From: Pseudomonadota bacterium
Lineage (GTDB): Bacteria > Bdellovibrionota > FAC87 > UBA2466
NCBI GenBank assembly: GCA_043718025.1
Contig: JAYSWN010000167.1
Coordinates: 1 to 21,981 of the forward strand
DNA length: 21,981 nucleotides
Reading direction: 5' to 3'
In this document: positions 5,671 through 7,906 of the stretch, one piece after another
How the letters are laid out: the number at the start of each line of letters is the position of its first letter
Position numbering within the stretch: position 1 is the first letter of the stretch
Notes under the pieces: generated by a model
The model's database searches: none
The model's input: only the letters and a program-made list of their open reading frames with translations
What the model was told of the DNA's origin: nothing
Made by a program: the position numbers and the translations under genes

Positions 5671-6347
5671 AGCGGCTCGTCTCTTTGGGGCTGGGTGTTT
5701 ACTCGGCCTGGCTTAGCGCGATTCCCATTAAAACCAATCAGCTTAGCGTTCCCAATCCACCGGCGTGGATAACCGAACGGCGAATGCAAAAGGTGGTCGA
5801 TGCCATTCAGCAAGCGCTGGAGTGGGATATTCGTCGGCTGCCGGTCTATTTCTACGCCGATGAAAGCCAATTTACCGACGGCTTAAAGCTAAACTTTAAG
5901 GCGGCGGGTTTTTTTCGCCGGGGAGATTGCTCCATTCACCTTGGCCCCGCGGTAAACACGGCAAATTTTGATGAGGTGTTTGGGCACGAGTTGGTGCACG
6001 CCATCTTCTTTCAAAAATATAAGTCGGCGATACCCGCTTGGTTAGAAGAGGGGCTGGCCAATTTTCTCTCGCGCCGCGAAAAGGTTGATTACGGGTGGTT
6101 GAGTAAGCAGCCGGCGGTGGATATCACCACGTTGAGCCACCCCAACGCCGAAACCAACGGCGCCCGCTTTCACTACCAAACCTCTACCGCCGCGGTAGAA
6201 ATGATTTCAAAAAAGTGTTCGCTGCCGGAGTTATTAAAATTGTCGGTGGGGCGAAAGCTCACCACTTACTTGGGAACCTATTGTGAGATCAAAGACGTTA
6301 ACGCCGATTTTCGCGCCTGGCTCGTAAGTAAGGCTAAACTTCGCTAA
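5667..6347 (+). CDS. Putative exported zinc metallopeptidase (clan MA, gluzincin-like)
   Basis: HELVH (HExxH) followed by PAWLEEGLA (third-ligand Glu); hydrophobic N-terminus; TTG start overlaps the upstream TGA. Confidence 0.8.
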   Translation: MKRLVSLGLGVYSAWLSAIPIKTNQLSVPNPPAWITERRMQKVVDAIQQALEWDIRRLPVYFYADESQFTDGLKLNFKAAGFFRRGDCSIHLGPAVNTANFDEVFGHELVHAIFFQKYKSAIPAWLEEGLANFLSRREKVDYGWLSKQPAVDITTLSHPNAETNGARFHYQTSTAAVEMISKKCSLPELLKLSVGRKLTTYLGTYCEIKDVNADFRAWLVSKAKLR

Positions 6348-6374
6348 TTTATAAAAAGCCGAATTCTTTGTGAT

Positions 6375-6406
6375 GGCTCAGCAATCGAACTAAACACAAA
6401 GCGTTC
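6375..6406. repeat. Dispersed intergenic repeat, copy 2
   Basis: GGCTCAGCAATCGAACTAAAcacAAAGCGTTC, 29/32 identical to 745-776, same orientation. Confidence 0.85.
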
Positions 6407-6418
6407 TGGTATTTCGCC

Positions 6419-6510
6419 GTCATAGCGAAGGCGCACGCAGTGTGGCTGAAGCAACCCTTTCACTGCAGGCCAAAGGTTGCCGCGCCTGCTACGCAGGCTC
6501 GGTAAATGAC
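6419..6510. repeat. REP/RPE-like palindromic element
   Basis: GTCAT...ATGAC inverted ends, a GCAACC...GGTTGC inner stem and a GCCTGC-TAC-GCAGGC hairpin. Resembles the GTCATTGCGAG...GCAATC / GATTGC...CTCGCAATGAC class of bacterial palindromic repeats. Confidence 0.7.
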
Positions 6511-6704
6511 CGGAACGCGGCTCTACATAAGGTTTTGAGACACTCTCTTAAGGAAAACGCCCACCCGACTCGATGAAAGGCAAAACCCCGCTGTCAAACC
6601 ATCAAAAATTATCTTTGTTGAGAAACCACCACGATTTCTCCACAGTTCGGTAAGCCTCTAAACTCATTGAGAATACATCGACAAACTGTAACAATCTTAA
6701 CATC

Positions 6705-6733
6705 TTGTGCCGGATTGGGGCTTTCGGTAGTCT
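6705..6733 (+). promoter_or_regulatory. Sigma70-type promoter
   Basis: TTGTGC (6705-6710), 17 bp, TAGTCT (6728-6733). The predicted start near 6740-6741 coincides with the first base of a long stem. Confidence 0.55.
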
Positions 6734-6740
6734 ATTACTT

Positions 6741-6870
6741 GTGGCTCGAAACGGTACGTTGGTGGATTACGAGCAGTTACATTTTTCTGCGCGTTCGCCC
6801 CTCCTAACGTACCTCTCGAACTAAAAACCTATCATCAATTTTTTGGAGTGCGCGTACCGTCGTGGGCCGC
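6741..6870 (+). ncRNA. Structured 5' leader or candidate cis-regulatory RNA with two alternative folds
   Basis: 6741-6758 pairs with 6853-6870 (13 WC + 3 GU of 18). Alternatively 6753-6762 pairs with 6804-6813 (10 bp). Inner hairpin 6769-6776/6787-6794. Confidence 0.55.
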
Positions 6871-6901
6871 GTGTTGCAAAAAGTTTCTCAGGTGAAAAAC
6901 A

Positions 6902-7489
6902 ATGAAAAGTTCAAAGTTGTACGTAATGTTGTTACTCGGAGCAGTGATGTTCTCGGGTGTGGCGAAGGCCGGTTCGAGCTGCTCTCCTACCAATGATGGT
7001 ACGGCGGCTAACGATAAAAACTTTATGCTTGTTGCCGTTCCTGGTGGAGAAGAAGGCACCGACTGTACTACGCTCACCACCAAGATTCGCGCTTACGAAG
7101 GAAGCAATATCACGGATGGAACTTACGACACCATGTTTGTGGTGGCGGCGCCTCCGATTGGTAACGCGGCTCGTACGCTTACCAGCTCTGATGCTTGCGC
7201 TAAACGCGATAGTGGCACGGTGAATGACGAAGACTTTAACGGCGCCACGTTAAACGGCCATGTGGCGGTTTTGGTTAACAACGAAGAAGCTTTGCCAGTT
7301 CGCTTAGCCCCTGCTGTGTACGTAAAAGGCGCGCCGAAAAAGGGCACGAAATGGTCGAAGTTGTTTTTCCTCACGGGCAACGGAACTGCCGGCGCCGCTA
7401 AAAACGTGTGCATGCTTACCGATACGGTTACTGGGCTTGTCCAAGCTTATTGCCGCGTATGCACCAGCAAAGCCAAGGATAACAATTAA
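6902..7489 (+). CDS. Secreted Cys-containing hypothetical protein
   Basis: 195 aa; signal peptide ending VAKA; 6 Cys; Gly/Ala/Thr-rich; CAGGTG RBS-like sequence upstream. Confidence 0.85.
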   Translation: MKSSKLYVMLLLGAVMFSGVAKAGSSCSPTNDGTAANDKNFMLVAVPGGEEGTDCTTLTTKIRAYEGSNITDGTYDTMFVVAAPPIGNAARTLTSSDACAKRDSGTVNDEDFNGATLNGHVAVLVNNEEALPVRLAPAVYVKGAPKKGTKWSKLFFLTGNGTAGAAKNVCMLTDTVTGLVQAYCRVCTSKAKDNN

Positions 7490-7519
7490 ATTAAACGGCC
7501 ATTTTTAAAGGAGTTAATT

Positions 7520-7846
7520 ATGTTGAAACTTATGTTTAAAATTGCCGTGCTAACGGTGATGTTAGGAACGCAAGCCGGGTATGGCATCTATGTATTCGCG
7601 CCGCTGGAAGGAGATTTTAAGTGCGGAGGCAATTTAGAGGGCTATGAATATGGATTAGCAACCGAGCCTTCGAACGGGGCAATCACAATTGTTGTACAAA
7701 CGAGCGGTACAACTGCCTGCCGAGCCGGTCAATTTCGTGATGGAAGTGTTAGCGGACCACTTAGGAATAATGCAAATAACACGGCTGAAGATCCGTTGAA
7801 TACCGTAGCGGCGGTTGAGGAAGCTCTGATATCCTTAGAACCATAA
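7520..7846 (+). CDS. Small secreted hypothetical protein
   Basis: AAGGAG RBS at 7508-7513; signal peptide MLKLMFKIAVLTVMLGTQAGYG; 2 Cys; followed by a terminator. Confidence 0.8.
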   Translation: MLKLMFKIAVLTVMLGTQAGYGIYVFAPLEGDFKCGGNLEGYEYGLATEPSNGAITIVVQTSGTTACRAGQFRDGSVSGPLRNNANNTAEDPLNTVAAVEEALISLEP

Positions 7847-7869: not shown

Positions 7870-7906
7870 AAAGGGCCGACAGCACTACTGTCGGCCCTTT
7901 TTTTTT
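7870..7906 (+). terminator. Rho-independent terminator, possibly bidirectional
   Basis: Perfect 13-bp stem AAAGGGCCGACAG / CTGTCGGCCCTTT, loop CACTA, T9 run; lies between convergent genes. Confidence 0.92.

Follow-up and report, generated by a model that had tools for sequence, protein, structure and literature searches.

What does the roughly 160-nt leader in front of a 195-aa ORF of this bacterium do, and does it act as RNA at all? A preliminary description of the window, by which we mean the whole 21,981-nt stretch analysed here, had proposed an uncharacterised cis-regulatory leader at this locus. To our knowledge, almost no cis-regulatory RNA motifs have been described from uncultured Bdellovibrionota. 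Our analysis supports the proposal: the leader belongs to no Rfam family, and cmscan against Rfam 15 at the gathering threshold returned no match in the entire window, in agreement with the earlier remark that it was not recognised as a known riboswitch. A U1 match within 6340–6950 (E 0.51) was set aside as chance, and the same search of seven homologous loci returned tRNAs only. A literature survey of titles and abstract openings found nothing on the motif, which the supplements of PMC8040213, PMC8632094 and PMC6429828 could hold. The signal is restricted to one order, spans promoter plus leader and is a larger feature than first noted. Our leading but still tentative reading, drawn from sequence comparison and fold modelling, is that a conserved core in the leader would serve as an RNA handle for a putative trans factor and, at this locus, would also take part in a kinetic translational switch between two folds, A and B. 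The features used below are as follows.

6633–6643, + strand: distal upstream box, by alignment a degenerate version of the paralogous promoter's box
6683–6707, + strand: conserved upstream box overlapping the −35 element, a likely regulator site
6705–6733, + strand: sigma70-type promoter, −35 TTGTGC and −10 TAGTCT, predicted start ~6740–6741
6744–6774, + strand: early hairpin P1 (6744–6748 with 6770–6774), retained in four copies of the genus
6753–6764, + strand: core RGTACGTWRGY with an invariant hexamer (6754–6759), defined by conservation in the order
6769–6794, + strand: predicted inner hairpin present in both folds, A and B, with a sequence that is not conserved
6799–6823, + strand: partner A, the inherited strand, aligning with the strand directly before the paralogue's start codon
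6832–6895, + strand: hairpin HP2, locus-specific and incompatible with fold B; 6832–6836 pairs with Shine-Dalgarno (SD) bases 6891–6895
6853–6870, + strand: partner B, a locus-specific 18-nt complement of the 5′ end, identified by complementarity and shuffles
6890–6895, + strand: SD-like AGGTGA
6902–7489, + strand: 195-aa ORF outside any Pfam or NCBIfam family, its N-terminus signal-peptide-like as judged from the sequence
7520–7846, + strand: 108-aa ORF without an assigned family, probably the unit's second gene
7870–7900, + strand: intrinsic terminator-like hairpin closing the two-gene unit, from a terminator scan

The promoter is present as first described, with TTGTGC (6705–6710) and TAGTCT (6728–6733) separated by a 17-nt spacer, and homologues keep it in the same place with an extended −10. 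A generic sigma70 scan omitted it from its list and gave a promoter at 6667–6695 instead (one site versus 2.7 expected); a start near 6741 is credible because the homologues back it, not because of a consensus match. Strong copies of the upstream box at 6683–6707 number only two in the source genome (G000), where a promoter matrix search found no clear additional member. The terminator scan detected no intrinsic terminator between 6705 and 6901. We rejected a sigma54 promoter candidate at 6863–6878, inside HP2, whose score of 9.8 lies below all 48 training sites (minimum 13.2) and is reached or exceeded by 421 of 43,895 sites. Genome-wide, 48 sites in G000 fit the sigma54 consensus at ≥11 of 12 positions, many directly 5′ of genes. 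Upstream of the promoter, 6400–6555 belongs to a dispersed repeat of about 150–200 nt (62 BLAST pieces on 42 contigs, 40 of them within 400 nt of a contig end), MITE- or REP-like, whose full copies have terminal inverted repeats; this copy is without the left arm. Downstream, the 195-aa ORF has one paralogue in G000, without the leader. Near the contig end, 21848–21905 is a 29-nt tandem duplication with CGGTACGTT in each copy.

Both proposed folds could be reproduced. Fold A joins 6753–6762 to 6804–6813 with 10 of 10 positions paired and one G-U, and TCGA is found at 6746–6749 and again at 6816–6819. Fold B joins 6741–6758, including the extreme 5′ end, to 6853–6870 with 16 of 18 positions paired and three G-U. 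The 164-nt leader folds better than shuffled controls (minimum free energy −51.6, z −2.7), with 2 of 200 shuffles equalling it. The fold B partner was equalled by 0 of 2,000 and 0 of 1,000 dinucleotide shuffles, the fold A partner by 90 of 2,000 and the hairpin 6741–6823 by 2 of 1,000, while both partners jointly were matched in 0 of 1,000. Two earlier arguments gave way here. The G-U pairs had been read as a sign of selection at the RNA level, which is weak: of the five departures from a perfect inverted repeat, only three would be tolerated as wobbles, and the two strands, sense and antisense, fold alike (−51.6 versus −51.3). It had also been stated that neither fold obviously covers the ribosome-binding site (RBS); this is wrong for A, because A coexists with HP2, which pairs the SD. 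The sole variant at partner B is one base, 6861, seen in two low-depth contigs, which may be an error. No homologue of partner B was found.

Fold prediction gave A with HP2 as the full-length minimum, with B 4.8 kcal/mol above it and excluding HP2; fold B was absent among the 12,318 structures within 4 kcal/mol of that minimum. The preliminary description held that A forms first and is displaceable by B. The order and the displacement are supported, but A is the full-length minimum and not a mere transient. In the growing transcript, P1 is predicted to dominate at 3′ ends 6775–6785, A from 6815, B near 6872–6875 only, and then A with HP2. The direct path from A to B is predicted to cross a barrier of 6.7 kcal/mol at length 6872 and of 18–26 kcal/mol later; for B to A the predicted barrier is 19.5–21.4 kcal/mol from length 6880 onward. 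The predicted cost of opening the RBS is lowest in B (4.9 kcal/mol), rises to 8.6 kcal/mol in A and reaches 11.5 kcal/mol if the core is kept unpaired; because HP2 forms beside A and pairs the SD, the predicted output is low in A and high in B.

The choice of fold is modelled as kinetic, decided within about 15 nt of transcription. P1 would form first, followed by fold A at about +75. As partner B emerged, at about +130, B would be favoured across a low barrier. A polymerase lingering there would leave B trapped, with the 5′ end fully paired and the SD open, giving high output, whereas one running on would allow HP2 to form, lock A and pair the SD, giving low output. A factor holding the core would block both A and B, and might give the lowest output of all.

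The origin of the leader could be traced within the same genome. The segment 6633–6830 aligns end to end with a paralogous locus (G000:C195; nhmmer E 1.7e-4), in an alignment that takes in the distal box and the promoter and ends immediately before that gene's start codon. The paralogous locus heads a 98-aa ORF, kdsB and pyrG; its leader has orthologues in two congeners (G001 and G002), and reads over it showed no variant. Compared with these three orthologues, the leader at 6633–6830 keeps 71 of the 103 columns that are fixed among them and 36 of the 92 that vary (p 5e-5), and because fixed columns are kept far better than variable ones, the duplicated copy is under selection. The alignment shows the promoter and the 5′ 90 nt to be a duplicate of the leader of the small conserved gene upstream of kdsB-pyrG, with the fold A partner inherited and the fold B partner and HP2 specific to the present locus. 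A protein search of the order's 37 other genomes and a DNA search of 40 relatives returned neither 6831–6901 nor the downstream gene. The 160-nt two-fold unit is thus not supported as the conserved entity: promoter, 5′ core and a fold-A-type partner have homologues, whereas the fold B partner, HP2 and the downstream gene were found in G000 only. The position of the paralogous copy upstream of an operon holding pyrG recalls the pyrG leader attenuator; unlike the attenuator, it has no Rfam match, leader terminator or 5′ G run, and most carriers of the core are not pyrG operons.

The small gene is itself of interest. Of 30 loci in the order, 17 encode a helical protein of 98–135 aa (L031 4116–4409 and orthologues) directly 5′ of kdsB-pyrG, a count that excludes one match with E 0.14. 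Profile searches gave this protein no family and no distant relatives, and a low-confidence structure model (pLDDT 61) had no fold match. Between this ORF and kdsB, each of the three genomes of the genus has a GC-rich hairpin (L031 3985–4110, minus strand; L015 1951–2106; L010 997–1152) whose C-rich loop is conserved and whose stem pairs have changed in G001; it is a candidate second RNA element.

Exact and model searches at first returned no copies beyond the four in the genus. The core RGUACGUW (6753–6760) nevertheless recurs after the same promoter type in the leaders of five gene contexts across seven genera of the order, and outside the order it occurs at background level. By synteny, the small-ORF loci of G006 and G016 keep promoter and core without P1. 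A pattern search with promoter plus core led to a second gene family, which encodes a 152-aa membrane protein, is present in 24 of the 38 genomes of the order and shares the promoter type at its loci. Of these 24 loci, 14 contain GTACGT: in seven it falls in the leader, 9–13 nt past the −10, in six within the first codons and in one at the start. The 12-mer of the present leader has exact copies in G007 and G017. Other leaders with the core precede a gene for a lipoprotein in G004 and one for a membrane protein in G012. Throughout, the core has the sense orientation and lies 4–80 nt from the estimated start, and this combination of fixed orientation and variable distance argues against a fixed promoter element. 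Four loci with the same promoter type, the small-ORF loci of G004, G007, G017 and G010, have no core in the leader.

A promoter-plus-core pattern matched 8 of the 38 genomes (control 2), and a second pattern matched 8 of 38 in the order (control 0) versus 3 of 363 outside it (control 3); these counts are not independent tests, as the patterns were derived from earlier matches and kin are not independent. The three matches outside the order lie in or at coding sequence and equal the control count. A looser −10-plus-core pattern was uninformative: every one of the 38 genomes matched it, and the control counts were much the same. Across the genome, upstream regions show no enrichment of the hexamer (18 seen versus 14 expected). 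A metagenome pattern scan returned three matches, all in ORFs and none with promoter or P1, and a viral scan returned none. We dropped a model match in G010 that resembled a covarying P1, which lies inside a coding 3′ end, and, as chance, two other weak matches of model R1 and 11 weaker matches of the P1 model (R2). We consider the core very likely to be functional.

Several further copies were recorded separately. Six loci of the 152-aa family (g12) and G022, where the hexamer is at the start codon, were excluded from the set of 14 leaders used below because protein sequence may explain the hexamer there. In the six (L138, L139, L142, L146, L147 and L148) it falls in the first codons, with the Lys/Tyr codons fixed and neighbouring third positions varying; these hexamers may represent the leader signal after a shift into coding sequence. 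In the window, a direct copy at 6919–6924 occupies codons 6–8 of the 195-aa gene, preceded by TCAAA, an echo of the leader's TCGAA; this copy may be protein-driven. Two very large lipoprotein-like genes of G000 (1,414 and 1,599 aa; C51 near 28035 and C189 near 491) have similar N-termini and core-like sequence in their leaders, with no significant partner. Upstream of the 152-aa gene (L133–L156), the strongly conserved promoter type comprises a TGTC box, GCATATTG, about 19 nt and GCTANAAT, and is arranged back to back with a tRNA gene.

Does the core act as RNA or as DNA? Within a fixed window from −50 to −10, the core has a partner with p<0.05 in 7 of 14 leaders when shuffles serve as the reference, and likewise in 7 of 14 when 600 real pre-start windows do; the best partner ends 12–31 nt before the start codon in 10 of 14. 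No significant partner was found in G006, G016, G001 or either G004 leader, and that of G012 had p 0.12. The hexamer never varies, while partners carry U-G and G-U cells; over 16 rows, the position after the hexamer pairs U-A five times, A-U four times and U-G twice, in a set chosen by best pairing and hence biased toward paired and wobble cells. A hexamer that stays constant while its partner changes calls for a reader other than the cis partner. Among intergenic complements in G000, no convincing sRNA candidate emerged, and holding the core is predicted to shift RBS access by −2.2 to +4.4 over 16 leaders, in no consistent direction. Antisense pairing is about as good as sense pairing (mean z −1.85 versus −1.66), sense being better in 5 of 14 leaders. 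On balance, the core probably acts as RNA.

The overall equality of the strands would fit the idea that a repressor uses the core as its DNA operator, with the partners as inverted secondary operators and the RNA folds as a by-product. A short invariant site near the start would fit too, as would the near-perfect inverted copies formed by partner A and by the partners in C195, G015, G027 and G028, and the additional direct hexamer copy within the 195-aa gene. Yet the distance from the −10 to the core ranges from 9 to 85 nt, the first copy is in sense in all five gene contexts, and no dyad extends beyond 4–6 bp. The partners of G002, G005, G007 and G017, moreover, pair much better in sense, through U-G and G-U cells that break the DNA motif. 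We regard an operator as unlikely.

A different DNA-level reader would be an elongation factor recognising the 12-mer on the non-template strand at an ops-like pause, with polymerase stopping at U6763. According to PMC5995543 and PMC7819879, RfaH recognises ops, a consensus pause of 12 nt that has a small hairpin in the non-template strand. The core resembles that description in its length of ~12 nt, its sense-only occurrence in leaders and its G-10/Y-1/G+1 arrangement in 10 of 14 leaders. With the hexamer G taken as −10, all 14 leaders have a pyrimidine at −1 and 10 of them have G at +1, against chance rates of 56% and 15% at all 976 genomic hexamers; the tally uses the second tandem copy in G006 and excludes the coding copy at 6919–6924 and the G015 partner copy. 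The position-free core also counts the kdsB-pyrG operon among its targets, an LPS-precursor operon whose first gene has no SD in this genus. The core centre differs from that of ops; the same sources suggest that other proteins might read the variable centre of ops. The DNA hairpin given there (position 3–8 pair) has an equivalent in 5 of 14 leaders only, being absent in nine. Against a pause also stand G012, found later, with T at +1; a single NusG, with no RfaH/UpxY above cut-off, in each of five genomes, all incomplete; and short operons, the unit at 6902–7846 being under 1 kb. The complementary partners downstream are left unexplained, and we consider this account quite unlikely.

The conserved part could also be a static 5′ stabilising stem, with fold B a neutral inverted duplication without switch function. 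In 8 of the 14 leaders, 4–8 nt separate the estimated start from the core, fold B is unique to the locus and loses at equilibrium, and the direction of switching is not common across the family. A purely structural stem should covary, however, whereas here the hexamer is constant while its partner varies; and B sits where the partner of most homologues does, directly 5′ of the SD, and beats all shuffles. A static stem is, in our judgement, distinctly improbable.

Least probable, and very unlikely, is a small-molecule riboswitch with P1 and its conserved loop (6743–6774) as aptamer: P1 is paired in 20 of 20 cells over four copies with one C-to-U wobble change and is predicted to form first and be displaced later, but its covariation is not beyond chance (258 of 500 shuffles as good), it is missing outside the genus although the core is retained, its 11 weaker model matches all lie in ORFs, and the leader has no Rfam match and no common known metabolic theme downstream. 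The restriction of P1 to one genus and its lack of covariation are what make a metabolite aptamer unlikely. The leader shares with kinetically controlled translational riboswitches an early 5′ hairpin, exclusive folds and a predicted timing-dependent outcome; it differs in lacking an Rfam match, in an aptamer fold limited to one genus and in genes that imply no ligand.

We return to the RNA handle with its putative trans factor. Trans RNAs (DsrA, RprA and ArcZ) act on the rpoS leader by anti-antisense switching. As in that leader, a short segment here pairs in cis near the RBS, and a competing binder would alter ribosome access. Unlike in rpoS, it is the 5′ end that holds the invariant strand, which unrelated genes have in common, most partners stop just before the SD and not on it, and a trans RNA is only putative.

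It is possible, though we think it doubtful, that the core marks an undescribed post-transcriptional regulon of one order, in which the present locus would be a duplicated and rewired module with a new second partner and a transcription-speed-dependent switch. If so, an invariant 5′ handle of 8–12 nt, exposed only during transcription and self-masked afterwards, would be carried in the leaders of envelope and secreted-protein genes and read there by a putative factor. Covariation-based searches tend to overlook an arrangement in which an invariant 5′ strand faces an antisense strand that changes freely; the same arrangement points to a putative trans factor. The locus itself offers a rare natural case in which a leader module was copied to a new gene and gained a new alternative fold there.
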